64,000 nucleotides of DNA from Vicinamibacterales bacterium (GTDB lineage: Bacteria > Acidobacteriota > Vicinamibacteria > Vicinamibacterales > UBA2999), in NCBI GenBank assembly GCA_035293405.1, contig DATDOE010000113.1, forward strand, positions 28,263 through 92,262, written 5' to 3'. Below the pieces are notes generated by a model. The model was not told the DNA's origin. It made no database searches and saw nothing but the letters and a program-made list of their open reading frames with translations. A program made the translations under genes and the position numbers. Positions 4,905-28,795 of the stretch are shown one piece after another. The number at the start of each line of letters is the position of its first letter. Position 1 is the stretch's first letter.

Positions 4905-4914
4905 TACCAGAACC

Positions 4915-6084: not shown

Positions 6085-6839
6085 GTCAGGTTTCGTACGT
6101 AGAGGTAGAAGGGCGCGGCCGCGAACAGGAGCGCATCGATCCGATCGAGCACGCCGCCGTGTCCGGGGATGAGCGCCGAGCTGTCTTTCACTCCGGCGGT
6201 TCGCTTGAGTCGCGATTCGAACAGATCGCCACAGATGCCCAGCCCGACGACCAGCACGCCGAGCGTGATCAGCGGGCCGAATCCGGCAAAGGGCAACACT
6301 CGCGCGCCAACAACGGTCATGAACGCGGTGCCGAAAATCACACCGCCAACTGCACCCTCGATCGTCTTCTTTGGACTGATTGCCGGAGCGAGCGGATGGC
6401 GGCCGAAGAGTCGCCCGGTGTAGTACTGCATGGAGTCGCTCACGGCGACCGTGCCGATCAGGAGCAGCGTCGCCGGCCAGTGCCACTGGCTGTGCACCGC
6501 GACCAGCATACCCAGCGGCATGCCAATGTAGACAGCGGCAAAGATGCCGGTGGAAGCCTGCTGGATCGTGTGGTTGGAGATCAAGACCTCGACCGCGACC
6601 CACAACAGGCCCATCGCGAACAGCACATAACTCGACGGCATCACGCCGCCGGACGCCATCCAGCAGAGGGCGACGACGAGCACCACGGCGCGGATCGGCG
6701 AGTCCGCGATCTCCAGGTACTCGCGCGCCGCCAGCGCCGCCACGACGCATGCCAGCACGCGCAGCGCCACGACTGGAAGGAAGAGAATGGCCGCCAGCGT
6801 CACGACAGCGAGGGCGACCCCGCTGATCACGCGCGTCAT
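6081..6839 (-). CDS. cdsA: phosphatidate cytidylyltransferase
   Basis: 252-aa polytopic membrane protein with the C-terminal CDS signature 'SRLKRTAGVKDSSALIPGHGGVLDRID'. Sits between uppS and dxr. Confidence 0.9.
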   Translation of the reverse strand: MTRVISGVALAVVTLAAILFLPVVALRVLACVVAALAAREYLEIADSPIRAVVLVVALCWMASGGVMPSSYVLFAMGLLWVAVEVLISNHTIQQASTGIFAAVYIGMPLGMLVAVHSQWHWPATLLLIGTVAVSDSMQYYTGRLFGRHPLAPAISPKKTIEGAVGGVIFGTAFMTVVGARVLPFAGFGPLITLGVLVVGLGICGDLFESRLKRTAGVKDSSALIPGHGGVLDRIDALLFAAAPFYLYVRNLT

Positions 6840-6882
6840 CCCTCGACTCCGCTCGGGATGACCCCGAGTGACAATCGAGGGG

Positions 6883-7671
6883 TCATTGCGCGCCGATGAC
6901 TGCCGGTGCGCCGATGCCGCCGTACCGCCGCTCGCGCTTCTGATAGGCGAGCACCGCTTCGATCAGGTGCCGGCGGCGGAAGTCCGGCCACAGCGTGTCG
7001 GTCACGTAGATCTCGGAGTACGCGATCTGCCAGAGCAGGTAGTTGCTGACCCGCATCTCGCCGCTCGTACGAATGAGCAGATCCGGATCCGGTTGGCCCG
7101 CCGTGTAGAGGAAGCTGGCGAAGCGCTGCTCGTCGAGATCCTCGGGACGGATGCCGGCCTCGATCGCGCGGCGTGCCGCATCCACGATCTCGGCGCGGCC
7201 GCCATAGTTGAGCGCGATGTTGAAGAGCATGCCGCGGCTCGCGCTGGTGCGCTCGATGGCGACGTTCAACTCGTCCTGAATATCAGGCGGCAGTTCCTCG
7301 ATGCGGCCGATCACGCGGAACCGGATGTCATTCCGCAGAAGGGTGTTCAACTCGGACCGCAGATAGCGCTTCAGCAGCCTCATCAGCGTGCCGACCTCGG
7401 TGGCCGGCCGCTTCCAGTTTTCGATGGAGAAGGCGTAAAGCGTCAGCACGCCAATGCCGAGGCGCGCGGCCGTCTCGACCGAGTCGCGCACGGCATCGAT
7501 GCCGGCCCGATGTCCCTCGACCCTGGGCAGGTGGCGCTGTGCCGCCCAGCGGCCGTTGCCGTCCATGATGATCGCGACGTGCGCCGGCAGCCGGTCGAAG
7601 TGAATCTCGCGGGCCAGCGTTTCATCGGCGTGCCCGGGCGGAATCCACGCCAGGAGATCCTCAAGCGGCAC
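6883..7671 (-). CDS. uppS: di-trans,poly-cis-undecaprenyl-diphosphate synthase
   Basis: 'HVAIIMDGNGRWA' and 'LLIRTSGEMRVSNYLLWQIAYSE' motifs of cis-prenyltransferases. Confidence 0.93.
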   Translation of the reverse strand: MPLEDLLAWIPPGHADETLAREIHFDRLPAHVAIIMDGNGRWAAQRHLPRVEGHRAGIDAVRDSVETAARLGIGVLTLYAFSIENWKRPATEVGTLMRLLKRYLRSELNTLLRNDIRFRVIGRIEELPPDIQDELNVAIERTSASRGMLFNIALNYGGRAEIVDAARRAIEAGIRPEDLDEQRFASFLYTAGQPDPDLLIRTSGEMRVSNYLLWQIAYSEIYVTDTLWPDFRRRHLIEAVLAYQKRERRYGGIGAPAVIGAQ

Positions 7672-7697
7672 GACTCAATCCCTCATTCGACAAGCAG

Positions 7698-8435
7698 TTA
7701 ATGATAATCCACACGGACCAGGAACAGGCCCTGCGGAGGCGCCGTCCTGCCCGCCTGCGCGCGCGTCGAACCCTGCAGCAGGGCGGCCATACCGTCTGCC
7801 TGGCGGAAGCCGCGCCCAACCTCGACGAGTGTGCCCACGACCGCCCGGACCATGTGACGCAGGAACCCGTCCCCCGTGATCTCATACGCGAGACGCCCGC
7901 CTCTATCGCGCAGCTCCGACTGGGTCATCGTCCGGACCGTCCCGCTGACGTGGCTGCCCGCGCTTTGAAACGCGGCGAAGTCGTGTGCACCGGTCAGAAC
8001 GGCGGCGGCCTGCCTCATCGCGTCCACATTCAGCCGCTCCGAAATATGCCAGACAAACGCCCGTTCGAACGGGTCGGCAATCACTCCATGCCGCAGCTCG
8101 TACCGGTAGGTCTTGGAGCGCGCGCTGAAGCGCGCATGGAAGTCCGCGGCCACTTCGTCCACAGCGAGGACGCGGATGTCGTCCGGCAACTGCGCGTTGA
8201 GCCCGCGAGCGAGCGTCACGACGTCGTGACCGCAATTCAGCTGGACGCTCGCCACCTGGCCAAGCGCGTGAACCCCCGCATCAGTTCGACCAGCGCCATG
8301 CACCGTCACCGTGCCGCCCTCGAAACGCGCGAGGGCTTCTTCGAGCAGCCCCTGCACGGACTCGCCATCGGCCTGACGCTGCCAGCCGACAAACCGCGTC
8401 CCGTCGTAGGCGAGGGTGATCTTGAGAGTGCGCAT
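7698..8435 (-). CDS. truA: tRNA pseudouridine(38-40) synthase
   Basis: 'LKITLAYDGTRFVGWQRQ' and the catalytic 'HGAGRTDAGVHA'. The ATG at 8435 is preferred over the TTG at 8444. Confidence 0.92.
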   Translation of the reverse strand: MRTLKITLAYDGTRFVGWQRQADGESVQGLLEEALARFEGGTVTVHGAGRTDAGVHALGQVASVQLNCGHDVVTLARGLNAQLPDDIRVLAVDEVAADFHARFSARSKTYRYELRHGVIADPFERAFVWHISERLNVDAMRQAAAVLTGAHDFAAFQSAGSHVSGTVRTMTQSELRDRGGRLAYEITGDGFLRHMVRAVVGTLVEVGRGFRQADGMAALLQGSTRAQAGRTAPPQGLFLVRVDYH

Positions 8436-8456
8436 CGTGATCAACGCTGATATCGC

Positions 8457-8523
8457 CGTAGGGGCCGGCTTCAGCCGGCCCGTCCACCGGTCCGCCTGAA
8501 GGCGCCTGAAGGCGGACCCTACG
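8457..8523. repeat. G+C-rich REP-like element bounded by CGTAGG/CCTACG
   Basis: cgtagg, then GGCCGGC-ttca-GCCGGCC, then GGTCCGCC-tgaaggcgcctgaa-GGCGGACC, then cctacg. Confidence 0.85.
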
Positions 8524-8580
8524 ACTCGCGTGAAGCCTGCTGGGCGCAGGGTGGGTCCTCTTCCATGGACCCGCCGGCGA

Positions 8581-9159
8581 TCACGTGCGCGAACCGGGTT
8601 TCACCACGGGCTGGCCCGCGGCGCACAGCGGGCACGACTCCGGCGGGTAGGTGGGCAGGGTCACCGTCGCGAGCGAGTGATACGGTACGTCGAGCGCCTG
8701 CTGCCCGCCACTGCGATCGATAATCGAGGCCGCGCCAATCACCTGCGCGCCCGCGGCACGAGCAACCTCGATGGTCTCGCGCGTCGACTTGCCCGTGGTC
8801 ACCACGTCCTCGACGACCAGCACCTTCTCGCCGGGCGCGAGTGAGAACCCGCGACGCAGCATCAGTGTCCCGTCCTGCCTCTCCGCGAAGATGGCGCGAA
8901 CACCCAGTGCCCGGCCGACCTCCTGACCGATGACGATGCCACCGAGTGCCGGCGACAGGACGACCTGGGCACCAAGGGCGCGCACGAGGTCCGCGATCTC
9001 TGCGCCACACGCCTCCGCATCCGCCGGGTGCTGCAGGACGAGGGCACACTGCATGAAGCCCGGGCTGTGCAGCCCGGAGGTCAGCCGGAAGTGCCCTTCG
9101 AGGAGGGCCCCGACGCGTCGGAAGCGATCGAGCACAGAATCCGCAGTAACTGAAGGCAT
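8581..9159 (-). CDS. pyrE: orotate phosphoribosyltransferase
   Basis: 192 aa. PRPP loop 'KVLVVEDVVTTGKST' and C-terminal 'CPLCAAGQPVVKPGSR', typical of the short PyrE type. Confidence 0.9.
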   Translation of the reverse strand: MPSVTADSVLDRFRRVGALLEGHFRLTSGLHSPGFMQCALVLQHPADAEACGAEIADLVRALGAQVVLSPALGGIVIGQEVGRALGVRAIFAERQDGTLMLRRGFSLAPGEKVLVVEDVVTTGKSTRETIEVARAAGAQVIGAASIIDRSGGQQALDVPYHSLATVTLPTYPPESCPLCAAGQPVVKPGSRT

Positions 9160-9256
9160 CTGGGCCGAGTATACCTTTTGCAGGTTGCGAACATCTGGCC
9201 TCGGCCATTCGTCATAGACAAGGCGTAACTGACCTTAAATATTGGAGTTCGGAGAG

Positions 9257-10930
9257 ATGCGTACGATTGTCATTCGGGCCGCCTGCCTCGTCGCCGCCGT
9301 CGCGGCCGCTTCTGGAACGCAGGTGTTCGTTTCCGCACAGGTCCTGTTCCCGGCAGGCGGTGGTATCCAGCAACAGGCCGCCAGAAGTCCTCAGGCTGCC
9401 GCGGCTCAACAGCCCGCAACCGCCGCGCCCCAGGTCAGGCGTCTGACCGCTGACGACGCGGTCAAGCTCGCCGTGGAAAACAACCTTGGCATTCAGATCT
9501 CGCGCTTTGATCCCCGGATCCAGGATTTGAACGTCCTGGGCGCCCGCGGGCTTTGGTCGCCGTCGTTCACCTCGACGTTGCAGACCAACAGCATCCAACG
9601 GCCGTCGGCCAACATCTTCACGGGAAGCCAGGAGACCAATTTCAAACAGGAGTCAGTCACCAGCAATTTCGGCCTGCAGCAGACGCTGCCCTGGGGCGGT
9701 GTGTACGATCTCGGGTGGGACAGCTCACGAACCGACAGCAACCAGGGCGGCAACACGTTCCGGCCGCAGCTCAATTCATCGTTGTCCTTGAACTACCAGC
9801 AGCCGCTGCTGCGTGGCTGGAGCATCGACAACATCCGTCAGCAGCTCCAGGTCAGTCTCAAGAATCGCGAGATCGCGGACGTCGGGCTTCGGCAGACGCT
9901 CGCGTCCACCACGCGCACAGTACGCAACTCGTATTGGAACCTGGCCTACGCCGTGGCCTCGCTGGCCGTGCAGCAGCAGTCGCTCGATCTGGCGCAGGAA
10001 TCGTTACGCAACACTCGCGCGCGCGTCGAGATCGGCACCACTCCCCCAATCGATATCGTCGAGGCCGAATCCGAAGTGGCGGCTCGTGAAGAAGCGGTCA
10101 TCGTCGCCCAGGCCAGCATCGCCACCGCGGAGGACACTCTCCGGGCACTCGTGTTCGACCCCGCGATGCCTGACTTCTGGACCATTCGCATCGAGCCGAC
10201 AGAGTTACCGCCGTTTCAGCCGACGATCGTCGATGTCGATGGCGCCGTTCGAAACGCGCTGGAGCGCAGGACCGATCTTCAGCAGACGGTGAAATCCATG
10301 GAAGCAACGGACGTGAACATCCGCTTCTTCCGGAACCAGACGCTGCCCGACGTGACCGCGAATCTCAACTACGGCCTGGCGGCGCTTGGCGGCACGCGGC
10401 TTCCGAGCTCCGGCGGATTCCCGGGCCTCCCGGTGGATCCGACATTGCCGACTGGTCCCCTGGAGAAGGGTTATCCGAGCGTGCTCCGCGACCTGCTGGG
10501 ACTCAACAGCCCGAGCTGGACGGCGTCCCTGAACATCACCTACCCGATTGGGGCCAGCCAGGCCGACGCCAACCTCGCGCGTGCGCGCTTGCAGCACAGT
10601 CAGGCACAGACACAGCTCAAGAATCAGCAGATGCAGGTGGGGACGCAAGTCCGTCTGCAAGCCCGCAACGTGACCACCAACCAACAACGTGTGCAAAGCA
10701 CTCGCGCCTCGAGAGGGCTCGCTGAGCGGCGGCTGGACGCCGAGCAGCGGAAGTTCCAGGCCGGCACGTCCACCAGCTTCCTGGTCTTCCAGGCGCAGCG
10801 CGATCTCTCCCAGGCCCGCAACAACGAGTTGAGGGCGATCCTCGATTACAACCAGTCGGTCGTCGATTTCGAGACCGTGCAGGAGATTCCGCTCGGAGGC
10901 GGCGGCGTCGCCACCGTCCCCACACAGTAA
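9257..10930 (+). CDS. TolC-family outer membrane efflux protein
   Basis: Signal peptide 'MRTIVIRAACLVAAVAAASG'. Two repeats of the OEP coiled-coil/beta pattern ('LTADDAVKLAVENNLG', 'AVRNALERRTDLQ'). The start at 9257 is chosen inside ORF 9242..10930. Confidence 0.85.
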   Translation: MRTIVIRAACLVAAVAAASGTQVFVSAQVLFPAGGGIQQQAARSPQAAAAQQPATAAPQVRRLTADDAVKLAVENNLGIQISRFDPRIQDLNVLGARGLWSPSFTSTLQTNSIQRPSANIFTGSQETNFKQESVTSNFGLQQTLPWGGVYDLGWDSSRTDSNQGGNTFRPQLNSSLSLNYQQPLLRGWSIDNIRQQLQVSLKNREIADVGLRQTLASTTRTVRNSYWNLAYAVASLAVQQQSLDLAQESLRNTRARVEIGTTPPIDIVEAESEVAAREEAVIVAQASIATAEDTLRALVFDPAMPDFWTIRIEPTELPPFQPTIVDVDGAVRNALERRTDLQQTVKSMEATDVNIRFFRNQTLPDVTANLNYGLAALGGTRLPSSGGFPGLPVDPTLPTGPLEKGYPSVLRDLLGLNSPSWTASLNITYPIGASQADANLARARLQHSQAQTQLKNQQMQVGTQVRLQARNVTTNQQRVQSTRASRGLAERRLDAEQRKFQAGTSTSFLVFQAQRDLSQARNNELRAILDYNQSVVDFETVQEIPLGGGGVATVPTQ

Positions 10931-10956
10931 GGAACCGCTCGGGTAAGATTCAGGCC

Positions 10957-11709
10957 GTGCCGCGCGTCACGGTCACCATCATCACGCTCAACGAAGCGGA
11001 CCACATCGCCGCCGCCATCGACAGCGCTTCCTGGGCCGACGAGATCGTCCTCGTCGACTCCGGGAGCAGCGACGATACTGTTGCCATTGCCCGCGGCAAA
11101 GGCGTTCGGATCGACACGCGCGCCTGGACCAGCTACGTCGATCAGAAGAACTTCGCCGCCGGCCTCGCCTCGAACGACTGGATCCTGTCCCTCGACGCCG
11201 ACGAGCGCATCACGCCACTACTGGCCGCGGAGGTCCGCTCCCTCCTGGGCACCGAACCTCAGTACCGTGGCTACCGTGTGCCTCGCGTCACCCACCACTT
11301 CGGACGATGGGTTCGCACAACGGACTTTTATCCGGACTACCAGACGCGGCTGTACGACCGGCGCGCGGGGCGGTGGAAAGGGCAATACGTGCACGAGTCG
11401 GTGTCGGTCGACGGCGAGACCGGCCGGCTCACCAACGAGCTCGAACACTATTCCTATCGCGACCTGCGCGATCACTTCGACCGCATCAATCACTACACGA
11501 CGCTCGCCGCGCGCCAGATGCACGAGAACGGCCGCCGCTCCGGGCCGCTCCACCTGCTGTTACACCCTCCCGCGGCCTTTCTGAGGAACTACGTACTGCG
11601 GCGCGGCTTTCTGGACGGCACCGCAGGGCTCACGCTCTCGATCGTGAACTCGTACGCCGTGTTCCTGAAGTTTGCGAAGCTTTGGGAGCTTCGCAAAACT
11701 CCCAATTGA
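10957..11709 (+). CDS. family 2 glycosyltransferase
   Basis: GTG start. 'VTVTIITLNEADHI', 'VLVDSGSSDDT' and 'ILSLDADE' (DxD) fit a GT-A fold. Confidence 0.85.
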   Translation: MPRVTVTIITLNEADHIAAAIDSASWADEIVLVDSGSSDDTVAIARGKGVRIDTRAWTSYVDQKNFAAGLASNDWILSLDADERITPLLAAEVRSLLGTEPQYRGYRVPRVTHHFGRWVRTTDFYPDYQTRLYDRRAGRWKGQYVHESVSVDGETGRLTNELEHYSYRDLRDHFDRINHYTTLAARQMHENGRRSGPLHLLLHPPAAFLRNYVLRRGFLDGTAGLTLSIVNSYAVFLKFAKLWELRKTPN

Positions 11710-11712
11710 AGG

Positions 11713-12819
11713 ATGTTCTCCCTCCACATCGACACCGCGCGTACCTGGCGTGGAGGCCAGAACCAGGTGATGCACACCGTCATGGGCCTGCGCGCGCTGA
11801 GGCAGCGGGCCGCCCTTGTCGCGCATCCAGAGGGAGAGCTTTTCCGCCGCATGTCGGAGGGCACCGATCTCATCCCGCTCGCCCCTCGCAACGAAATCGA
11901 CATCGCCGCGGCCTGGCGATTGTCACGTCTCCTCAAACGGCTGAAGCCCGACCTCCTCCACGCGCACGATCCGCATGCCGTCGCGATGGCCGCCACGGCG
12001 CTCTCCATCACGTCCCCCTCGCCGATGCCGGTGCTCGTCGCCTCGCGCCGCATCGAGTTCCGGATCGCCGTGAACTCGTTTTCACGATGGAAGTACGGGC
12101 AGGTGGACTGCTTCATCGCCATCAGCGAGGCGGTTCGTGACCGGCTGGTTGCCGACGGCATTCCCCGCTCCAAGACCACCGTCGTCAACGAAGGCGTCGA
12201 CGTCGAGCGCATCGTTCACCTCACGCCGGCGAACGTGCACGCGGCCTTCTTCCTGCCAACGCACGCACCGGTCGTCGGCAACGTCGGCGCGCTCGTCACG
12301 CAGAAGGGCCAGCATCACCTCATCGACGCGGCCGCGATCGTCGTCAAGCGGATCCCCGACGCGCGGTTCGTCATTCTCGGTGAGGGCGAGCTGCGCCCGC
12401 AGCTCGAAGAGCAGATCCGCCGCAAGCATCTCGAACGTCACGTGTTCCTGGCCGGCTTCCGCCCGGACGCGCTCGAGCTGATCAAGGGATTCGATCTGTT
12501 CGCGCTGAGCTCGCTGCACGAAGGCTTGTGCACGTCGCTGGTGGACGCGATGGCCGCTTCACGAGCCGCCGTCGCGACCGACGTCGGCGGCGTGCCCGAA
12601 GTCATGGTCGATGGCGAAACAGGATTCCTGGTGCCGGCCCGCAATCACGAGGCAATGGCCGAACGGATCGTGGACCTGCTCAAGGACGATGCCCTGCGTG
12701 CGCGGATGGGTGAGGCCGCGCTGCGCCGCGCGCGGGCGCGGTTCACCGTCGAGCGCATGGTGGCGGGCACGGCGGTGACGTATGAGGCGCTGATCTCAGC
12801 CAGGAGGCAGCTCGCGTAG
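11713..12819 (+). CDS. family 4 (GT-B) glycosyltransferase
   Basis: C-terminal 'SSLHEGLCTSLVDAMAASRAAVATDVGGVPEVMVDGETGFLV' (the E-x7-E region of GT4 enzymes). Confidence 0.85.
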   Translation: MFSLHIDTARTWRGGQNQVMHTVMGLRALRQRAALVAHPEGELFRRMSEGTDLIPLAPRNEIDIAAAWRLSRLLKRLKPDLLHAHDPHAVAMAATALSITSPSPMPVLVASRRIEFRIAVNSFSRWKYGQVDCFIAISEAVRDRLVADGIPRSKTTVVNEGVDVERIVHLTPANVHAAFFLPTHAPVVGNVGALVTQKGQHHLIDAAAIVVKRIPDARFVILGEGELRPQLEEQIRRKHLERHVFLAGFRPDALELIKGFDLFALSSLHEGLCTSLVDAMAASRAAVATDVGGVPEVMVDGETGFLVPARNHEAMAERIVDLLKDDALRARMGEAALRRARARFTVERMVAGTAVTYEALISARRQLA

Positions 12820-17770: not shown

Positions 17771-19078
17771 TCAGAGCGCGATGTGGGCGTCAGGGTTCAC
17801 GAAGAGCGTGCGACCACCAACGATGGTCGCCGACACACCGCCACGCAGCTCCCAGCCGTCGAACGGCGTGTTCTTCGAACGCGAACGCAGGGAGGCCGCC
17901 TGGATACGCACGCGCAGGTCCGGGGCAATGACCGTGATGTCCGCCGGTGCTCCCTCAGACAGGGTCCCTCCGGGCACACGCAAGATCCGCGCGGGGTTCG
18001 TAGACATCAGCTCCACCAGCCTGGGCAGACGGATCAGGCCCGAGTGGACCAGCCGGTCGAGCGAGAGCGACACGGCTGTCTCCAGCCCGACGATCCCGAA
18101 CGGCGCGCGGTCGAACTCGACCTTCTTCTCGTCGTAGTGGTGCGGCGCGTGATCGGTGGCGATCGCATCGACCGCGCCGTCGGCGATGCCGGCCAGCATG
18201 GCGTCACGGTCGGCCGCCTCGCGCAGGGGAGGATTCATCTTCACGTTGGTGTCGTAGGGAATCGGCGCGCCCAGCGCCTCGTCGGTCAGCGTGAAGTGAT
18301 GCGGCGCCACCTCACAGGTCACCCGCACCCCGCTCTCCTTGCCCTTGCGCACGGCGCGCAGCGACGCGCGCGCGCTCATGTGCGCCACGTGAAAGGCCGA
18401 TCCGGTCAGCTCGGACAGCAGGACGCCGCGTTCCACGCCCAGCGCTTCGGCGGCCCCGGGCATACCGCGCAGCCCGAGCGACGCGGCGTGGAAACCCTCA
18501 TGGGCAACACCATCGGCCTTGAGCGACTGATCCTCGCAATGCTCGATGACGGGAATACCGAACATGCCCGCGTATTCGAGCGCGCGGCGCAGCAGCATCG
18601 CCGTCGCCACCGGATGCCCGTCGTCGGTAATCGCGACGCAGCCGGCATCCTTCAACTCGGCGATATCCGCGAGGAGCTCACCTCTGGATCCCTTCGACAC
18701 CGCACCAATCGGATACACGCGCGCGAGGCCGGCCTCGGCGGCCTTGGCCAGAATCAGCAACGTGACGTTGGCGTTGTCGTTGACCGGAGAGGTGTTGGGC
18801 ATGCACGCCACCGCCGTGAAACCACCGGCCACGGCCGACGCGGTCCCCGTGGCCACGGTTTCCTTGTGCTCCTGGCCAGGCTCGCGCAGGTGCACGTGCA
18901 TGTCGATGAAGCCCGGACAGATCACGAACCCGGCGGGAATCTCGACGACGGTCGCGCCGTTGACCGGCAGGTCACGGCCGACGCGAGCGATCCGATCGCC
19001 CTCGATCAGCACATCGTGGATGCCGTCGATCCCGTTGGCGGGATCGACCACTCGCCCGCCCTTAAGCAGCTTCTTCAT
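17771..19078 (-). CDS. pyrC: dihydroorotase
   Basis: '[13 protein letters not shown]' metal-binding HxH and 'ATDHAPH'. Overlaps the pyrB 3' end. Confidence 0.93.
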
Positions 19079-20042
19079 GTTCGGCTCCGCCCGCGAGGAG
19101 ATAGAGGACCGCCATCCGCACGGCGACGCCGTTGGCCACCTGGTCGAGAATCACCGAGTAAGGACCATCGGCCACTTCTGATGCGATCTCCACGCCGCGG
19201 TTCATCGGACCTGGGTGCATGATCATCACGTCCGGTTTCGCGAGACGCAGCCGCGCCTCGGTCATGCCGAACACACGAAAATACTCACGGAGCGACGGGA
19301 AGTACGCGCCTTCCATGCGCTCGAGCTGAATCCGCAACAGCATCACGACGTCCGCGCCGGCGACCGCCTCATCCACTGAGCTCGTCGGCGTGACGCCGAA
19401 GCGACGGATGTCGGTCGGGAAGAGCGTCGGCGGTCCACACACCCAGACATCGGCGCCCATCTTGGTCAGCAAATGAATGTTCGACCGGAGCACGCGGCTG
19501 TGCAGCAGGTCGCCGACAATGGCCACTTTCAGGCCGGCCAGCTGCTTCTTCCGCTCCCGGATCGTGAACGCGTCGAGCAGCGCCTGCGTCGGATGCTCGT
19601 GCATCCCGTCGCCGGCGTTGATGATGGCTGATCGGCAGATGCGCGAGAGCAGGTGACACGCACCCGAGGATGAGTGGCGCAACACGATCATGTCCGGGGA
19701 CATCGCCTCCAGATTGAGGGCCGTATCGGCCAGCGTCTCGCCCTTGACGACGCTCGAGGTGCCGATGGCGATGTTGAGCGTGTCGGCGCTGAGCCGCTTC
19801 TCGGCAATCTCGAACGAGGTGCGCGTGCGCGTGCTCGGCTCGTAGAACAGGTTGACGACCGTCTTGCCGCGCAAGGCCGGCACTTTCTTGATCGGCCGGG
19901 TCCCGACTTCCTTCATCGCCTCCGCCGTGTCGAGGATCAGGGCAATCTCGCCGGGCGTCAGGTCGGCGATGCCGAGCAGATCCTTGTGGCGCAGGGCCGT
20001 CACAGCCGGCTGCCGATCGATCTCAGTGCTGGCCGTCGTCAT
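19062..20042 (-). CDS. pyrB: aspartate carbamoyltransferase catalytic subunit
   Basis: '[13 protein letters not shown]', 'HPTQALLD', 'HPGPMNRG'. Confidence 0.95.
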
Positions 20043-20581
20043 GCGCTCCCTCCCTGCTCCACGATCACTTCGTCCTGGCCGTCGATCTCCAGCAAACGCA
20101 CCTGCACGCTCTGCTCGGGAGACGTCGGCAGGTTCTTGCCGACGTAGTCGGCCTTGATCGGCAGCTCCCGATGCCCGCGATCCACCAGCACGATGAGCTG
20201 GATGCCCTTCGGGCGGCCGAAGTCGATGAGCGCGTCGAGCGCGGCCCTCGTGGTTCGTCCCGTGTAGAGCACGTCATCCACGAGCAGAATCTTGCGGTTG
20301 TCGATGGAAAACTGAATCTCGGTCCGGCGCACCTGGGGCTGAAGGCCCACGGTGTGGCGCATCAGATCGTCGCGATACAGCGTGATGTCGAGCGCGCCCG
20401 TGGGCACGTCCTGACCGGTGATCTCGCGCAGCGCGCGGGCGAGACGCTTGGCGATCGGAACGCCGCGCGTGCGCACGCCGACCAGCGCGAGGTCGTCGAC
20501 GCCCTTGTTGCGCTCGACGATTTCGTGGGCGATGCGGGCCAGCGTACGGCCGATCCGATCCGCATCCATGACTACGGGCAT
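20039..20581 (-). CDS. pyrR: bifunctional pyrimidine operon regulator / uracil phosphoribosyltransferase
   Basis: 180 aa. '[21 protein letters not shown]'. First gene of pyrR-pyrB-pyrC, with an ATGA-type 4-nt overlap with pyrB. Confidence 0.93.
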
Positions 20582-20633
20582 GCGGACCTCTCGAGGGGGA
20601 TGTTGTGTGGGAAAACGCGTGTGGGCATGTTCA

Positions 20634-20667
20634 CCTCTTCGCGGCCTCGCGGGACCGCAGTTAAAGA
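20634..20667 (-). promoter_or_regulatory. PyrR-binding RNA leader motif
   Basis: The minus strand reads 'UCUUUAACUGCGGUCCCGCGAGGCCGCGAAGAGG'. This resembles the Bacillus-type binding loop (UUUAA ... GUCCAGAGAGGCU ... GAAGG as I remember it), with a GCGG/CCGC stem around 'UCCCGCGAGG'. Confidence 0.55.
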
Positions 20668-20675
20668 GTGAAGCG

Positions 20676-20684
20676 ATTATATCA
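20676..20684 (-). promoter_or_regulatory. extended -10 promoter element (TGATATAAT) for pyrR operon
   Basis: On the minus strand, 20684..20676 reads TGATATAAT, a perfect TGnTATAAT, about 95 nt upstream of the pyrR ATG and just upstream of the PyrR-binding motif. Confidence 0.6.
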
Positions 20685-20737
20685 GTTCAACAGGTTCGAT
20701 GGGTTCAACGGCTTCCAAAGGTTCAATCGGTTCCCAA
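20684..20737. repeat. six tandem imperfect 9-bp repeats (GGTTCAAYN)
   Basis: agttcaaca ggttcgatg ggttcaacg gcttccaaa ggttcaatc ggttcccaa. Followed by the hairpin CCAAGGGT-aggcga-ACCCTTGG (20734..20755). Confidence 0.85.
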
Positions 20738-21282
20738 GGGTAGGCGAACCCTTGGCGACTAACTCGAGAGTAATCCGATGGTGGGAACGTATCGGCCTCG
20801 CCGTCGATCGATTCCTCTGCGGCTCACCATCTTTTCATCAGCACTCACCTCGCGCCAATTACTTGAAAATGGCGCGGTTGCGGCGGTCCGATTAAATCGA
20901 TTTCCGTCGCAGGGACACCCTCAGGGAACAACAGCTGCTGCGGCCGCTGCTTCTGATTTAGAGACGCCTGCACACACAAGTCCGAGGCGCGAGGTCACAC
21001 CTTCTCAGCGAACGCCAACGATACCCTCTCACACCGAGTTCTTCGATCGAGTCGGCGTGATGGGTCGATCTGCGCAAGCGTCAGCTCCTCGCGGAGTTTA
21101 TCGCGCTACCGTTCAAAACTCGTCAGGTCGATGTCCTGCGCGTAGAGGAACAGTGACCTGTTCTGTCACGGAGCTGCGTTATTCTCTGTTCCTGAGTCGA
21201 TACATTGTCTTGGGGTGTCTCCCCAAGCCAATGCAATATCTTGTATCGAGGCGTCCAACCAGATTACCCTCAATCGATTTTC

Positions 21283-23406
21283 ATGGCTGTCTTGACCCAG
21301 GTCCCTTTTCCGTCGGCTTCTGCAAGGCCATTGACTGCGCACCGGCCTGGACGCTCCCTCGCCGGGGCCGTCCAGGCGCGACAGCAGCCGCTTGTTGAAG
21401 CCAGAGGACTGCTGGTGGATGCGTTGCGGGGCAGCCCGGAAAGTTCGGAAGCATTCGCTGCAATCTTCGCGGTCCGCTCGCCGAACCAATTCACCGACAC
21501 AAATCCAGACTCCATTCCCGAACGGGCAGCGTGGGCACTCGTGAATATGTACTTGCTCGGTGCTGATGCTGGAGCACTGATCTCGGATTCACTGCGCTCC
21601 GCCGAGGCGTGGTTCCTCGGATCTCGGGCGCAGTATCTTCCGTCACTAGCAGAGTGCGTCGATGTCCCAACCGATCGCGCTTGTGCGATGTTGCTGTCCG
21701 TCGTGACGATCGACCGCGAGTTCCGGGGACTTCTTCCGTACGTCCTGGAGCCGTTCGACTTCGCGCACCGTATGAGCGCAATGCGGTGCGCGGAATCAGG
21801 AAAGCAGCGTAGACAAAAGCGCTCGTCAGGTACTTTCTACACGCCTGGCGACGTAGCCACGAGCATCGCGCAGCACGCGGTCGGATCGGTCCTGACAGGC
21901 GGACGGGCGATCGATCCCGCGTGCGGAACCGGTGTCTTCTTGTTGGCGCTCTTGCGCGAGTTACGGAAGGGGGGCGATGCTCGCACGCCCTTCCAGATCT
22001 GCGGTAACAGCCTCTACGGGATCGACGTCTCGGACCTTGCCGTCGAGTCATGCGCGTTCGTCCTTGCGCATGAATGCCTTGACGAGATCGAGCACGTCGA
22101 CCCATGGGCAGTGTGGCAGACGATCCGCCTGAATCTGTGGGCGACCGACACGACACGGATTCGGTTATCGATCAATTCGCCCGATGGGACGGAGAGAGAA
22201 TGCGCCAGAAATGCTCTGTCGGCAAACAATTCAACTCCGGCAGGCTTCGTTGGAAAGAACGACACTGGGGCATCGCTCTGGCGAGAATCTGATCCCACGG
22301 ACCTCTGGAGCGTGTTTCCTGAAGCCGCGGGCGGATTCGAGGCGATCGTCGCTAATCCTCCTTACGTTCGAACCACATCTGAACCTGGCAACCTGTATAT
22401 TCGCTTCGTTGAGCAGATGATCAGGCTTGCGCGACCCGCGCGCAGCTTCATCGGAGCCGTTTTGCCGCTCTCTGTCGCGTTTTCTTCTGACGACGAGACG
22501 AGAAACCTCCGGCTGGCATTGACTCACGCTTCAGGCACTTGTCGTTTCGCTTTTTTTGACCGCGAGCCTCACGGCCTATTCGGGGAGGAAGTGAAGACTC
22601 GATCGGCAATTCTGTTCCGTCAGATCGAGCCGGGTGCTGGGCCCGCGGTTGTCCAAACGACTTCATTGCTACGACTCACAAGTCGATCGCGCGCCACGCT
22701 TCTTGAATGCCTGCCGGCTGTCAGCTTGGGACATCAAGACATTCGCGATGGCGTACCCAAACTCGGAAGCGACGTTGAAGTTGATGCATACAACCGGCTG
22801 ATCACCAGGCGGTTCCGGAACAGCGACCTCAGGTTCTCCGCGGCCCCCTTCACGTCTTGCCTTGGTGACCAGGGCGAGGATTGCATTTACGTGGGTCCGG
22901 TTGCTTACAACTTCATCAACGTCGTCAGACGCCTGGAGCTTGTCCCTCGTCCGGAGGGTACACCGACGAGTTCGAATTTCTTGAGATGCGAATTGACGGA
23001 TTCCGTGACCGCGGACGCCATTTTCGGGCTGTTCTCCAGTAGAGTTTCGTACTGGCTGTGGAATGTTCGCGGAGACGGATTCCACGTGTCCAAACGGTTC
23101 GTTGAAAACATCTCGACCTTCTGGGGCGATTTCCCCGCGAGCGCCCGGGCGACCTTGGCCGGAAAAGGCAAGGAACTATGGGCGGCTGTGTCCCGATCGC
23201 CGATCGTCAGCCGAAACGCGGGTGCATGGAGTGTCGCGTTTTCACCTTTGCCATATCAAACTCTCTTAACTGAGATCGACGCTATCGTATCGACGCACCT
23301 TGAGCTGCCGGAAGACTTCTCGGCTTTGCTGCGACGCGCTGCGGTAGAAAGAATCGTTGTGAATCCAGATGAAAAGAAGAGACGCGAACTTGTCGGCCAC
23401 GAGTAA
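21283..23406 (+). CDS. gamma-class N6-adenine DNA methyltransferase (Eco57I/TaqI-like) with long N- and C-terminal regions
   Basis: Motif X 'GTFYTPGDVA', motif I 'IDPACGTGVFLLALL' and motif IV 'IVANPPYVR', in gamma order. The start is uncertain: TTG 21205 or ATG 21283. Confidence 0.85.
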   Translation: MAVLTQVPFPSASARPLTAHRPGRSLAGAVQARQQPLVEARGLLVDALRGSPESSEAFAAIFAVRSPNQFTDTNPDSIPERAAWALVNMYLLGADAGALISDSLRSAEAWFLGSRAQYLPSLAECVDVPTDRACAMLLSVVTIDREFRGLLPYVLEPFDFAHRMSAMRCAESGKQRRQKRSSGTFYTPGDVATSIAQHAVGSVLTGGRAIDPACGTGVFLLALLRELRKGGDARTPFQICGNSLYGIDVSDLAVESCAFVLAHECLDEIEHVDPWAVWQTIRLNLWATDTTRIRLSINSPDGTERECARNALSANNSTPAGFVGKNDTGASLWRESDPTDLWSVFPEAAGGFEAIVANPPYVRTTSEPGNLYIRFVEQMIRLARPARSFIGAVLPLSVAFSSDDETRNLRLALTHASGTCRFAFFDREPHGLFGEEVKTRSAILFRQIEPGAGPAVVQTTSLLRLTSRSRATLLECLPAVSLGHQDIRDGVPKLGSDVEVDAYNRLITRRFRNSDLRFSAAPFTSCLGDQGEDCIYVGPVAYNFINVVRRLELVPRPEGTPTSSNFLRCELTDSVTADAIFGLFSSRVSYWLWNVRGDGFHVSKRFVENISTFWGDFPASARATLAGKGKELWAAVSRSPIVSRNAGAWSVAFSPLPYQTLLTEIDAIVSTHLELPEDFSALLRRAAVERIVVNPDEKKRRELVGHE

Positions 23407-23440
23407 TGCTGTGAAGAAACCCAAGGGGATGAAGGCTGAG

Positions 23441-24340
23441 ATGACGGACCCGATCCCCAAGGCGATCAAAGCGAAGAGCATCGTCTCCAAAGAGGAATGG
23501 CGAGAGTACACAAAGACCGTCTGGCATATCGCGAATGTCTCAGACCCTGATCACCCAGCCGTGTTTCCGGTTGAGATTCCGCACAGACTGATCAAGCTTT
23601 TTAGCTTTTATGGTGAGGTGGTCTTGGACCCGTTTGCGGGCGTGGGTACCACAGCTCGCGCCGCCATTCCCCTCGGCAGGAGAGTGGTGTGCGTTGACCA
23701 GAATCCGCAGTACATCAGCGCAATCAAGACGCGGTGTGCCGCGTTGAGTAACGGAAGGCCAGCCTCGGAGCTTCTGACTGCGGTGAGAGGCGACAGCAGA
23801 TCATTGTCAGCTCTCGCAGACAATTCCGTCGGGTTGGTTGTAACAAGTCCCCCGTATTGGGACAAGGCAGACTACGGCGACAGTCACTCGAACCTCGGCA
23901 GCATCGGGAACTATTCAGATTTCCTGGGCATGACGAAGCGAGTGTTCGCCGAATGCCTGCGAGTGCTGAGTCCTGGCCGGAAACTCTGCATCGTCACCGC
24001 CAACGTGAACCAGCATACGGATCACGGCCTGCTCACTTTCCCTTTGGCCGCGGATTTTCTTCTGCAGGCCCGAGAACTTGGGTTCGTTCTGATCAACGAA
24101 ATCATTTGGTCGAAAGATGGGACAGGTGGGAAATGGGGATCGTGGGGTTCGCAGCGGCCGATTTTTGGAAGCTACCCCTATCCGCCGAACTTCTTGTTCA
24201 AGAACGTGCATGAGTACGTATTGATTTTAGCCAAGCCGCCACAGAAACGAATCTCTGGCAAGAAGGTTCGGTCCTATTCAGACCTAATGACCTCTGTGAT
24301 CCCGCCTGTTGCTGAAAGGCATCGACGGCGAATGCAGTGA
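23441..24340 (+). CDS. N4/N6 DNA methyltransferase (PF01555-like) with permuted motif order
   Basis: 'HPAVFPVEIPHRLIKLFSFYGEVVLDPFAGVGTTARAA' (motifs X and I) lies N-terminal to 'LVVTSPPYW' (motif IV) and 'IIWSK'. The ATG at 23441 has 'GAAGG' 5 nt upstream. Alternative starts are 23429 and 23369. Confidence 0.85.
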   Translation: MTDPIPKAIKAKSIVSKEEWREYTKTVWHIANVSDPDHPAVFPVEIPHRLIKLFSFYGEVVLDPFAGVGTTARAAIPLGRRVVCVDQNPQYISAIKTRCAALSNGRPASELLTAVRGDSRSLSALADNSVGLVVTSPPYWDKADYGDSHSNLGSIGNYSDFLGMTKRVFAECLRVLSPGRKLCIVTANVNQHTDHGLLTFPLAADFLLQARELGFVLINEIIWSKDGTGGKWGSWGSQRPIFGSYPYPPNFLFKNVHEYVLILAKPPQKRISGKKVRSYSDLMTSVIPPVAERHRRRMQ

Positions 24341-25416
24341 GCTTCCACGTCCAGCCTGACCGGGTCAGATTTTTCGAAGTACTGTCCGTTGGCCTCGAAC
24401 AGGGACCGTGGACCGACTTTGCGATCGCAGTGGCGTGGGCTAGGGAAAACGCGGTCGCCTCAATGACTCCTGTGTTGAGTCAATTCCTTCAGGCCGGGGG
24501 CCGGTTCAAGATTACGGTTGGAATCGAATTGCTGGGCACGTCCCGCGAAGCCCTTGAAAGCCTTCTTGCCTTGGAGAGGTATGGCTTTGCAGAAACATTC
24601 ATCTACCATAATGAAGCGCCCGAGGAAACGTTTCACCCCAAGATCTACCTGTTAAGTGGACGCGGTCGAGCGAGACTCATCGTTGGTTCCAGTAACCTCA
24701 CCGGCGGTGGGCTGGCGACCAACGTAGAAGCTGCACTCGAACTGGAGTCACCGGTCGATGGACCAGCCATCGTAGAGGCCGTTCGCTGCCTCGCAGGGCT
24801 GCGAGATTTGCAAGATCCGAGAGTCAAACGTTTGGACGCGGCCTTTCTCGCTGAACTCGTTGCATCTGGGTACGTGATCTCCGAGGCCGAGATCAGGACG
24901 CGCCGGGCAACGCAAACACGCGCACGGGCGGCAAACGCGCGACCGCGGAACAGACTATTCGGCACGGTTCGTCGTGCGCGTCTCCCAGGCGCGAGGCGGC
25001 CGCAAGTGCAAGTCGTCGAGGCTGCCGTCTTGCTACTGCGACCTCGCCGAGCATCAGCGACCGCGCGTAGAACGCAGGTGCAGGTTCCCATTCGACTGAC
25101 TCGCACACCGTTCTTCACGGGTGTCGCGTCGGTCGTCAGCGCACATGACAACCGTAGGCATGGGCTACGGCGGGCGCGGGCTCGCGGCGGCCTCAACACT
25201 GTGAAGCTCGAACTGCCGGAGACTGACGCAATCGAGAATTTCGTCCTGCGTCTCACGAAACGTGGCGATCGAGTGACCTACGAAGCGTTTTCGACAGACT
25301 CGGAACTGGGGCGGCCGATCGCTGACGCGCTCCAGGCCGGACTGGAAACAGATCCACCGACAACAACTGCCACGATTCCGAACCTCGACCGCGCGACCCT
25401 GTATCGATTCGTCTGA
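24337..25416 (+). CDS. PLD-family (HKD) nuclease, putative BfiI/NgoFVII-like restriction endonuclease
   Basis: A single HKD-type motif 'FHPKIYLLSGRGRARLIVGSSNLTGGG' in the N-terminal half, an Arg-rich linker and a separate C-terminal domain. The GTG start overlaps the methyltransferase stop as GTGA. Confidence 0.75.
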   Translation: MSFHVQPDRVRFFEVLSVGLEQGPWTDFAIAVAWARENAVASMTPVLSQFLQAGGRFKITVGIELLGTSREALESLLALERYGFAETFIYHNEAPEETFHPKIYLLSGRGRARLIVGSSNLTGGGLATNVEAALELESPVDGPAIVEAVRCLAGLRDLQDPRVKRLDAAFLAELVASGYVISEAEIRTRRATQTRARAANARPRNRLFGTVRRARLPGARRPQVQVVEAAVLLLRPRRASATARRTQVQVPIRLTRTPFFTGVASVVSAHDNRRHGLRRARARGGLNTVKLELPETDAIENFVLRLTKRGDRVTYEAFSTDSELGRPIADALQAGLETDPPTTTATIPNLDRATLYRFV

Positions 25417-25490
25417 TTTCGAGAGTCCTGCCGACCTGCTGTGGGGCGCTGTCCACAGCCGGAACGGCGGAGTTACAAGCGGTCTTTCGT

Positions 25491-25997
25491 ATGGACTACG
25501 AGTTCCATGTTCAGGATCCGACGTCGCCAGACACGGTATACCTGTTTGAGGCGATCATCGATGCGGCACAACTCGCCACCGAGTTGCGTGGCATCTTCGC
25601 CTTCGCCAGCCAGTCGCGGCTATCGAAAGGGTTCTCGCCGCACAGGTTCCTGCGGCGGGTGGGCGGTGGCACCAGGTACACTTCAAGGTACATGTTCACC
25701 CAGCGCACGCGCGAGATCGGCGTCCGCATGGCGCTCGGTGCGCGGAACGCCGCGTTGAAGCGAATGTTGCTGAGTCAGATACTGCTGGTCACTGTCATCG
25801 GTGTGACTCTGGGTCTCGCCGGAGCGGCGCTGCTGACGCGGCTCATGGAAACGCTGTTGTTCGGCGTTGGCGCACTCGACGCAACGACCTACGTGACCGT
25901 CTCCGCGATCCTCGTCATCACGGCAGCGCTCGCAGCCTATCTGCCGGCCCGGCGCGTGACACGCATCGACTCGATGCAGGCGCTGCGCGCGGAGTAG
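25491..25997 (+). pseudogene. chimeric remnant: unrelated 5' segment fused to the last FtsX/MacB-type permease segment
   Basis: From about aa 75, 'QRTREIGVRMALGARNAALKRML...LFGVGALDATTY...PARRVTRIDSMQALRAE' is the typical C-terminus of a much longer FtsX-domain permease. The N-terminal 70 aa are unrelated. Confidence 0.7.
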
Positions 25998-26130: not shown

Positions 26131-27882
26131 CTATGGAACCCCATATGAGGGAATAAAGGTGATCGTGCGTTGTTCGTTGAATGCACGTGTGAAGAGATCG
26201 GTGCGTGCGAAGCCGTCGATGTCGCGGGCCACGGGAAGGCCAAGGAAATACAGGAGCGTGGGCGCCACGTCGACGACCGCGCCGCGCGCCTGCCGCGCCG
26301 GCGCCACGGCCGATCCGTAGGCGATGAGGAAACCGTCGGGCGCGCGCTCATGGGTGCCGGTGAACCGCTCATCGCCCACCGCGCGCTCGAGCAGTCGCTT
26401 GCCGAAGGTCAGCGGCTCCATGCCGAAGCCAGACACGACGAGCAGGAGGTCGTCTTCATCAAGCGTCGCCAGCGCGTCGCCGACGAGCGAATCGACGTAC
26501 GCGTAGTAGTCGTCCAGCACGCGCCCGAACTGTCGGCGCTCCTCGTCGGACACATCACCATAGGCATCGGGCATCGCATAGCGAAGGTAGTAGTGGCCAA
26601 CCGCGTCGAGCCCCGCATACCGCACGGCGAGCAGCCGTACGTGCTCGGCCGGGCCGAGCTGCTGGGCGAGCAGATGATGGAGATGGTCGGCCTCGACCGT
26701 CGAACCGCTTTCACCGGTGCGTGGCAGCAGCTCCAGACGAGCGCGACGCTGGCCAGGCGACTGCACCTGCTCCGCGGCCAGTACTGCACGTGCCACCTCG
26801 TCGAGCCTGGGCGGCGACACGGCCGGCAGCGCATCGAGGACGGCCATGCCGTCGGTCCGGCGATGGAACTGGTCGCTGACGATGAATCCTGCCGGCGAAT
26901 CCGCGGGATGCGTGAGCGGCAGGCCGATGAGACCCGTACGGACGCCGTACCGACTGGCGACACGCCACAACGGCATGGACGCGAGACTCGTGGACGAATA
27001 GGGCTCCTCGATCAGGAGGCCGACACGGATCAAGGCCTGTGAGAACAGGTAGTCGGGCAGCACCTCCAACGCGACATCGCCGTTGAAGGGCCGGTACCGC
27101 GCGGCGCCCCGAACGCCGTGCCGTGACGGCCACGTGCCGGTCATGACCGAGGCCCACACCGGCTCAGGCTGCGTCGGCCGCGTCGTGGCCAGGTGCATCG
27201 ATGCGCCGCGATCGAGCAAACGGCCGAAGTTTGGGAGGCGCCCGGCCGCGACCGCCGGGGAGATCACGTCGAGCGAGGCACCATCGAGGCAGAGGAGCAG
27301 CACGCGTGGTCCGTCAACGGGATCGGCGTCAGCCGGCGCCGCTGCCAGGGCTCTCGCCGGCGGGCGCGCAGCCGGCCCCCTCAACCACACGGGCACGACG
27401 ATCGACCCGATTGTCGCCAGGGTGAACAGGATCGCGACCGTCGCCCGGTGCCGCCGGCGCGCGGCCACCTGAGCGAACCCGAGCAGCAGAAAGACCAGCA
27501 TCGCCGCCGCGAACACCGTCGCCGCGTAGGTAATGGCTGGCATCGCGCGCGGATCGAGTGCGGTGCGCAACCCCGAGGCGTGGAGCCAGGTGACGACGGC
27601 CGCTGTGCCGCTCAGCACGGCCGCGCTCCACGTCAGAAGGCGCAGGCTGATCCAGCCAGGTGACGAGGGCTCGACGATCGCGATCTGACGCAGCACATAC
27701 AACGCATACGACACGACGGCGATGTGGAGGCCGTAAGACAGCATCGCCACCGTGAACACCGGACCAGCGGCATGCGTGGTCAACGCCACCGACGGATTCA
27801 GATGCAGCAGCAGAAGCGTGAGGTACACGGCAGCGAGCAGCCCCGCGAACACCGAGTTGCTGAGCATGCGGAGGTATCTCAT
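26131..27882 (-). CDS. membrane-anchored alkaline phosphatase/phosphodiesterase-superfamily protein
   Basis: About 5 N-terminal TM helices, then 'VLLLCLDGASLDV...TTRPTQPEPVWASVMTGTWPSRHGV' (AlkP-core metal/nucleophile region). Confidence 0.8.
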   Translation of the reverse strand: MRYLRMLSNSVFAGLLAAVYLTLLLLHLNPSVALTTHAAGPVFTVAMLSYGLHIAVVSYALYVLRQIAIVEPSSPGWISLRLLTWSAAVLSGTAAVVTWLHASGLRTALDPRAMPAITYAATVFAAAMLVFLLLGFAQVAARRRHRATVAILFTLATIGSIVVPVWLRGPAARPPARALAAAPADADPVDGPRVLLLCLDGASLDVISPAVAAGRLPNFGRLLDRGASMHLATTRPTQPEPVWASVMTGTWPSRHGVRGAARYRPFNGDVALEVLPDYLFSQALIRVGLLIEEPYSSTSLASMPLWRVASRYGVRTGLIGLPLTHPADSPAGFIVSDQFHRRTDGMAVLDALPAVSPPRLDEVARAVLAAEQVQSPGQRRARLELLPRTGESGSTVEADHLHHLLAQQLGPAEHVRLLAVRYAGLDAVGHYYLRYAMPDAYGDVSDEERRQFGRVLDDYYAYVDSLVGDALATLDEDDLLLVVSGFGMEPLTFGKRLLERAVGDERFTGTHERAPDGFLIAYGSAVAPARQARGAVVDVAPTLLYFLGLPVARDIDGFARTDLFTRAFNEQRTITFIPSYGVP

Positions 27883-27985: not shown

Positions 27986-28795
27986 ATGCCCGTCGATGTC
28001 GAGGCAAAGGTCATTCGCAACACGCGCCTCTCCGCTGACTACAACGTCATCGCCCTCGCTGCTCCCGAGATTGCCGCCGCGGTTGCTCCTGGCCAATTCG
28101 TGATGGTCAAGCCGGGCCGCGGCAACGATCCGCTGCTGCGCCGCCCGTTCTCCGTGTTCGAGATCCTGCGCACCAACGGCGGCGTCGAGGGCCTGACACT
28201 GCTCAGCAAGCGCGTCGGCGTGACGACCCGCATGCTGCTTGACGCCGTCGAAGGCGACATCGTGTCCTGCCTGGGCCCATTGGGAAGACCGTTCGTGCCG
28301 GTCGATCCGCCAGAGGAGGCGTGGATAGTGGCGGGAGGCGTGGGGCTCGCTCCGTTTGCGACACTCGCCGAGGCGTTGCGCGAGCGCGGCACACCAACCA
28401 CCTTGTTCTATGGTGCACGGTCGGGACGCGAGCTCTTCTACCTCGATTGGTTTTCGTCCCGCGGTGTCCGGCTGGTACTGGCCACCGAGGATGGAAGCTC
28501 AGGTGAACGCGGGCGTATCACCGTGCCGCTCGAGCGCGCCCTGCAGCAGACAAAGGGCAGCGCCATGATCTACGCCTGCGGTCCTGAACCGATGCTCGAA
28601 GCCGTCGCGCACATCTCAGGCAAGTACGGCCGGCGATCGCAGGTCTCGGTCGAGCGCGTGATGGGATGCGGAATGGGCGGGTGCTATAGCTGCGTCATTC
28701 CGATGAAGGACACCGGGGGCGGCCATCACTACGTCCGTTCGTGCATCGCTGGCCCGGTCTTCAGCGGTACAGATCTGGTATGGGAACATGACTAA
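27986..28795 (+). CDS. pyrK: dihydroorotate dehydrogenase (NAD+) electron-transfer subunit
   Basis: FAD/NAD-binding fold ('RPFSV', 'GGVGLAPF') and a C-terminal 2Fe-2S Cys cluster 'CGMGGCYSCV...VRSCIAGPVF'. Confidence 0.92.
   Translation: MPVDVEAKVIRNTRLSADYNVIALAAPEIAAAVAPGQFVMVKPGRGNDPLLRRPFSVFEILRTNGGVEGLTLLSKRVGVTTRMLLDAVEGDIVSCLGPLGRPFVPVDPPEEAWIVAGGVGLAPFATLAEALRERGTPTTLFYGARSGRELFYLDWFSSRGVRLVLATEDGSSGERGRITVPLERALQQTKGSAMIYACGPEPMLEAVAHISGKYGRRSQVSVERVMGCGMGGCYSCVIPMKDTGGGHHYVRSCIAGPVFSGTDLVWEHD

Follow-up and report, generated by a model that had tools for sequence, protein, structure and literature searches.

We analyzed a 64,000-nucleotide stretch of a Vicinamibacterales genome (Acidobacteriota; GenBank assembly GCA_035293405.1, contig DATDOE010000113.1, positions 28,263 to 92,262; hereafter the window), focusing on an intact open reading frame (ORF) at 24337..25416 on the forward strand that encodes a 359-aa protein of the PLD family, here called R. 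We conclude, with a probability of roughly 0.8, that R is the endonuclease of a three-gene, BfiI-type, helicase-independent Type IIS restriction-modification (R-M) system with two cognate methylases, M1 and M2. Asymmetric Type IIS/IIA sites are classically served by two methylases and one nuclease (PMC4081073), and the two-methylase cassette and the absence of a conserved helicase are among our reasons for reading the system as BfiI-type with an asymmetric site. The original prediction, made from the sequence alone, had described R as an HKD nuclease with an Arg-rich linker and a separate C-terminal domain, and had implied an R-M context; both methyltransferase genes are indeed found directly upstream of R.

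In the mechanism that we propose, a single metal-independent active site would arise where the N-terminal PLD domains of two R chains meet, with H100, K102, N120, and E131 supplied by each subunit, and cleavage of DNA would proceed via a covalent phospho-histidine intermediate. The recognition sequence would be short and asymmetric, with one copy bound by each C-terminal domain, and the shared catalytic center would cut at a fixed distance to one side of it. M1 would protect one strand by N6-adenine methylation and M2 the other, probably by N4-cytosine methylation.

The M1-M2-R cassette

M1, M2, and R follow one another in this order on the same strand with overlapping reading frames. The GTG start codon of R overlaps the stop codon of M2 (GTGA, 4-bp overlap). 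M1 (21205..23406, forward strand; up to 733 aa, the true start possibly being the ATG at 21283) is a gamma-class N6-adenine DNA methyltransferase. Its translation carries DPACGTGVF as motif I and NPPY as motif IV, and it matches the Pfam families Eco57I (2.6e-8) and N6_Mtase (7.3e-7) and, weakly, TIGR02987 (Alw26I/Eco31I/Esp3I-type IIS adenine methyltransferase). M2 (23369..24340, forward strand; 323 aa) is an N6_N4-type, beta-class-like methyltransferase that matches Pfam N6_N4_Mtase (7.8e-38) and PADLOC MTase_II (8e-57), in each case as stretches in swapped order (two of them for Pfam). Its motifs are permuted, with motif I (DPFAGVGTT, residues ~87-95) ahead of motif IV (TSPPYW, ~159-164). 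An SPPY motif IV in the N6_N4-type class is typical of N4-cytosine enzymes, which suggests N4-cytosine methylation by M2.

The cassette is conserved well beyond the window. Using tblastn, we identified M1, M2, and R together in 28 loci of GTDB species genomes and on one metagenome contig (L001, the contig of the R homologue P0009), all of them collinear except for one convergent locus. The genomes belong to Acidobacteria, Planctomycetes, Chloroflexi, Verrucomicrobia, and Proteobacteria, and identities across the loci are 58-70% for M2, 26-35% for M1, and 32-45% for R. The permuted motif order of M2 is kept at this level of identity in all 28 loci and thus is no assembly artefact. R itself has one identical copy, which is metagenomic, ~12 full-length homologues in the protein collection (35-80% identity), and ~35 further full-length relatives in GTDB species genomes; Acidobacteria, Planctomycetes, Chloroflexi, Verrucomicrobia, and Alpha-, Beta-, and Gammaproteobacteria are represented. 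Because homologues at 32-80% identity run full length, we consider the gene to be under selection.

In a sister subfamily of seven loci (L027-L029 and L031-L034; e.g., L033 7920-12235 and L034 7929-12257), with R proteins 31-37% identical to that of the window, the nuclease gene lies directly beside two C5-cytosine methyltransferase genes and not beside M1 and M2. ORF clustering over 37 loci showed that only methylases are conserved next to R, with no conserved helicase or ATPase. In the window, too, the cassette neither contains nor adjoins a helicase or ATPase gene.

The surroundings of related cassettes are varied. Two were found in defense islands: that of L001 adjoins a gene for a 1182-aa HIT-PLD-helicase-DUF3427 protein (4532-8080, minus strand), and that on the contig of homologue P0006 adjoins a gene for a 1067-aa Mrr_N/GmrSD_N protein. 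The sister-subfamily cassette of L034 sits among phage-like recombination genes (ERF, YqaJ, DUF932). A low-GC metagenome-assembled genome of the Clostridia (L038, ~8000-12050) encodes a very divergent R, the C-terminal domain of which was detected only at E 6e-7, with convergent M1 and M2 homologues downstream of it. Thus, the M1-M2-R combination reaches the Firmicutes.

The catalytic domain of R

The PLD/HKD catalytic domain (residues 1-192; 24337..24912, forward strand) was recognized by Foldseek, by alignment, and by a Pfam match below threshold. It carries H100-P-K102 (24634-24642), GSSN120LT (residues 117-122; 24685-24702), and TN129VE131A (24718-24732). The ORF is exactly as first described, with a single HPK ... 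GSSNLT motif, and a regular-expression search over the protein found no second HxK. The HxK(x)4D(x)6GSxN spacing is correct, with the Asp replaced by Ser107; BfiI likewise has Ser at the canonical Asp. H100, P101, K102, G117, S118, N120, N129, and E131 are invariant in a 13-sequence alignment (A1).

BfiI and BmrI are Type IIS enzymes that recognize ACTGGG with 5/4 cleavage (PDB 2c1l, 3zi5). BfiI is the best match of R in the PDB by single-sequence search (2c1l, E 0.038, phmmer), and the family profile matches SauUSI (7clg; 1.9e-6), BfiI (8.3e-5), and, weakly, R.NgoAVII. Foldseek placed BfiI 2c1l at the top of the matches to the full-length model of R (E 4.8e-12, 403 columns), followed by SauUSI (6.6e-9) and R.NgoAVII (4rct; 2.9e-7, 381 columns). 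NucT (6ehi) was matched at E 8e-6 with a TMt of 0.62-0.63, and further matches to PLDs, PPK, and Tdp1 also correspond to the PLD fold. In the phmmer alignment to 2c1l, residues H100, K102, N120, and E131 align at a constant offset of 5 with H105, K107, N125, and E136, which form the active site of BfiI (PMC4267654). The predicted HKD nuclease is therefore confirmed as a single-HKD PLD protein with BfiI as its closest structural relative. Single-HKD chains are established to dimerize to build the PLD active site in Nuc, BfiI, and NgoAVII (PMC4081073, PMC4267654), and by analogy R would do the same.

The likeness to BfiI extends to the whole protein. In both, a long linker joins an N-terminal single-HKD PLD domain to a C-terminal one of ~130-165 aa (358 aa in total for BfiI, 359 for R), and both are stand-alone nucleases without an ATPase that are linked to methylases. 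However, their sequence similarity is limited to ~70 residues around the active site, and the methylase partners of R, a gamma-class N6-methyladenine (m6A) enzyme and a permuted SPPY enzyme, are unlike those of BfiI. R.NgoAVII and R.CglI (PDB 4rct, 4rd5) share the arrangement of PLD domain, linker, and C-terminal recognition domain; they form dimers with one active site, as R presumably does. PADLOC matched R to ZacB (2.7e-9) and DrmC (4.9e-6), matches that cover the PLD domain alone. We rejected a DISARM or Zorya assignment because no DrmA/DrmB or Zor genes occur among the neighbors.

The C-terminal domain

Residues 230-359 (25024..25413, forward strand) form a beta-rich domain that we regard as a candidate sequence-recognition module. 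Its predicted local distance difference test score (pLDDT) is 85-90 in the full-length AlphaFold2 (AF2) model computed on alignment A1, and 91.5, with a predicted template modelling score of 0.85, when residues 226-359 are modelled alone. The domain is thus folded and separate, as had been proposed, and the disorder that the original prediction had allowed for was not seen.

Conservation is strongest in VLLLRPRRASxxxRRTQVQVPIRL, an N-arm-like element (residues 231-254), and in the hairpin NTVKLELPE (287-295). The most conserved segment of the domain, LLLRPRRASATARRTQ (232-247), comprises strand 1, a loop, and strand 2. The invariant residues, mostly Arg, Lys, Asn, Gln, and Thr, are concentrated in these two elements: R237, R244, T246, Q249, and P251 in strand1-loop-strand2, and N287, T288, K290, E292, P294, and E295 in the central hairpin. 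Both elements differ between the m6A/SPPY-linked subfamily and the one linked to 5-methylcytosine (m5C) methylases. The former has RRASxxxRRTQ in strand1-loop-strand2 and NTvKlEiPE in the hairpin, whereas the latter has vrprr--G.Q.Qism and NTarfEapEm, respectively.

A profile of the C-terminal domain alone matched 160 clusters at 50% identity, most of which have the layout of PLD plus C-terminal domain. In ~10 clusters the domain is located at the N-terminus and is followed by a T5orf172/MUG113 nuclease domain, and this reuse with T5orf172 nucleases supports a portable recognition module. In others it comes after an N-terminal region of ~100 aa and of no known type. The domain behaves like a DNA-recognition module in its BfiI/NgoAVII-like architecture, in this reuse, and in conserved loops that differ with the methylase partner.

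Several proteins with this domain deserve mention. The T5orf172/MUG113 fusions P0051, P0057, P0104, P0143, and P0162 (L082 4614-5510) are 270-310 aa long and correspond to the PADLOC candidate PDC-S57. Proteins of ~250 aa (P0144, P0150-P0154, P0158, P0159, P0136, and P0165) carry the domain in its m5C-subfamily form after a conserved N-terminus of no known type (GFARRVTLxNLhxFxPLL ... DPxLAxAExLF) and have no recognizable nuclease domain; these may be DNA-binding-only relatives or partner subunits. In P0125 and P0135 the domain is N-terminal, and by eye their tails show an HNH-like motif (HLIPR...N...C..N) and a PD-(D/E)xK-like motif (ILDVY...IEIKP), respectively; neither motif was confirmed by Pfam or PADLOC. 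A eukaryotic plectin-repeat protein (P0108) among the domain matches was dismissed as a compositional artefact.

The original prediction had suggested a B3/EcoRII-N-like beta-barrel. In the AF2 model the secondary-structure elements follow one another as b1-b2-a1-b3-b4-b5-a2-b6-b7, with one helix and one strand in addition, which is the B3 order, as in the RAV1 B3 domain. The two most conserved elements fall where BfiI-C and EcoRII-N have their N-arm and C-arm (PMC3973309). The top PDB match of the isolated domain by Foldseek is likewise a B3 domain, that of VRN1 (4i1k), but it is not significant (E 0.32, probability 0.57, TM 0.39/0.43). The other PDB matches are Ig-like noise, and BfiI-C, NgoAVII-B3, and EcoRII-N lie outside the top 50. 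Pfam found no B3, EcoRII-N, or BfiI-type family in 12 sequences of the domain at E<=10. Aligned by hhalign with four plant B3 domains (sequences confirmed in the PDB), a 127-sequence profile of the domain reached a probability of 0.2%, at which the register was the expected one (RRTQVQIPIR over KLNRLVIPKH). A profile of BfiI-C could not be built, since a BfiI-family search with a 77-residue BfiI fragment returned three fragments only. Foldseek against predicted viral structures (BFVD) gave nothing significant. A B3/EcoRII-N fold is therefore not established for the modelled domain, and DNA binding by it is suggested by context only, given that it has no significant match to known recognition domains.

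The profile of the domain also matched levivirus coat proteins (MS2/fr) over residues ~252-344 (window ~25090-25368), with NTVKLELPE opposite YTIKVEVPK, which in the MS2 coat protein lies in a strand on the RNA-binding side. The match reached E 0.0017 for a tandem-dimer chain only, single chains giving 0.13-1.4. We rejected this likeness as probable chance or convergence in a short NT-x-K-x-E-x-P-like motif, as no coat protein was among the top 50 Foldseek matches.

The interdomain linker

The two domains are joined by a disordered Arg-rich linker (residues ~193-229; 24913..25023, forward strand), delimited by pLDDT, alignment, and charge. The "extremely basic stretch" first described between the domains is real, with 18 Arg/Lys and 1 Asp/Glu in the 61 residues 187-247, but its second half, LLLRPRRASATARRTQ, belongs to the folded domain and not to the linker. 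In the AF2 model on alignment A1, pLDDT is below 50 at residues 194-202 and 214-228 and rises locally at ~201-210, where an R-L-F-G motif is located (206-209; 24952-24963). L207, F208, and G209 are completely or almost completely conserved. Across homologues the linker is 43-84 aa long, rich in Pro, Ser, Thr, and Ala, and has one conserved motif, (P/R)-L-F-G. Its net charge is +12 in R and lies between +2 and +15 in the 33 full-length homologues compared, and a positive charge kept in every one of them indicates more than an effect of GC content.

The linkers of BfiI and NgoAVII are acidic (Asp/Glu-rich) and are proposed to mimic DNA, occluding the catalytic cleft for as long as proper engagement of the enzyme is lacking (PMC4267654). 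Speculatively, a basic linker is unlikely to act as such a mimic, and that of R, with its conserved LFG motif, would more probably bind to DNA or to the surface of a domain; candidate roles are DNA contact, a ruler for the cut distance, or a different form of autoinhibition.

Weighing the explanations

Several observations weigh against a BfiI-type endonuclease. The Pfam PLDc_2 match of R reaches 25.4 bits, just short of the gathering score (27). No significant match links the C-terminal domain to BfiI-C, NgoAVII-B3, EcoRII-N, or plant B3 domains; to BfiI-C it has neither detectable sequence similarity nor significant structural similarity. Given the opposite charge of the linker, basic in R but acidic in BfiI and NgoAVII, regulation may differ. 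Finally, no methyltransferase gene lies beside the fusion gene on the two T5orf172-fusion contigs that we examined, so that the domain also occurs outside R-M systems. The lack of a significant match to any known DNA-binding fold would fit a C-terminal domain that reads no sequence at all, being a protein or RNA binder or a non-specific DNA clamp, with specificity residing elsewhere or lacking altogether (a Nuc-like nuclease restrained by the presence of the methylases). The only recurrent sequence matches of the domain, though not significant, are also to RNA-binding proteins, the levivirus coat proteins. However, Arg, Lys, Asn, Gln, and Thr dominate among its invariant residues, which lie on two loops or hairpins, and both loops change with the methylase type. 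The domain also occurs in fusions with at least two unrelated nuclease domains, a pattern that a targeting module would be expected to show. Site-specific methylases, moreover, could not neutralize a non-specific nuclease. We therefore regard a non-reading C-terminal domain as quite unlikely.

It is very unlikely, in our view, that R is a modification-dependent nuclease of the Type IV or END-like kind that merely happens to lie beside unrelated methylases in a defense island. SauUSI and END(PaCF1) are modification-dependent and combine a homologous N-terminal PLD nuclease domain with a variable, swappable C-terminal sensor (PMC12191111); SauUSI is also the best profile match of R in the PDB, and Type IV-like genes occur near the cassette on related contigs. 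SauUSI and END nucleases, however, have no cognate methylases, and SauUSI has a helicase motor in addition, whereas R is tightly linked to two methylases. Chance neighbors would not keep the M1-M2-R order with its 4-bp stop/start overlap across phyla at the low identity seen for R, and in the second subfamily the nuclease is once more linked to two methylases, no more and no fewer. Moreover, self-cleavage would be a risk for a Type IV enzyme transcribed together with methylases. The layout shared with R.NgoAVII, and the Foldseek match of 4rct to full-length R, could instead mark R as the nuclease and recognition subunit of an ATP-dependent NgoAVII/CglI-type enzyme that needs a helicase-like N/H partner. 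Yet no helicase or ATPase accompanies the cassette, either in the window or as a conserved gene in the 37 loci, and NgoAVII/CglI systems consist of one methyltransferase, R, and a helicase (PMC4267653) rather than two methyltransferases without a helicase; such a dependence is extremely unlikely. We thus retain the BfiI-type Type IIS system as the explanation of R. Within it, we tentatively raise the possibility that the C-terminal domain is an undescribed portable sequence-reading fold, either not B3 or diverged into a family of its own, which is used with at least two nuclease chemistries, and that a basic, LFG-anchored, DNA-binding linker replaces the acidic mimic. These chemistries could be PLD in R and T5orf172 (GIY-YIG-like) elsewhere, possibly with the HNH-like and PD-(D/E)xK-like tails that were seen by eye only. 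If true, the basic LFG-anchored linker would represent a different way to couple recognition with cleavage.

Genomic setting

The cassette is located in a low-GC island (20600..25650; 53-62% GC versus ~65% in the flanks, from composition profiles), bounded on one side by pyrB/pyrR (19062-20581, minus strand) and on the other by what remains of the 3' end of an FtsX-type permease gene. This remnant is part of an ORF at 25491-25997 (forward strand; 168 aa), the last 100 aa of which are the C-terminal end of a permease of the FtsX/MacB type (Pfam FtsX, 4.4e-14) and the first 60 aa of which are unrelated; it looks like a gene remnant at the rim of the R-M island. A Phosphodiest-family gene (26131-27882) and a pyrK-like gene (27986-28795) lie beyond. 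The ~600 bp 5' of M1 (20600-21200) contain no recognizable gene. Searches of the island borders found no tRNA, integrase, or convincing flanking direct repeats, and neither promoter-like sites nor a terminator 3' of R were found.

Significance

To our knowledge, BfiI and BmrI are the only well-studied stand-alone Type IIS enzymes of the PLD type. They are valued for metal-free cutting and for a separable cleavage domain that has been used for chimeric nucleases (PMC2094064). Reviews already note dozens of uncharacterized HxK restriction candidates (PMC4081073). Because many such enzymes are expected, R is of moderate interest, mainly for restriction-enzyme specialists and enzyme engineers. Its architecture and chemistry are those known from BfiI, and no new defense principle is involved; new are the unnamed recognition-domain family and the inverted charge of the linker. 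With ~160 clusters at 50% identity in many phyla, the R family would bring new specificities to the PLD-type enzymes, of which the methylase partners point to at least two, together with a new compact recognition module. Its basic linker, set against the acidic ones, would also provide a natural experiment on what the linker does in these enzymes.

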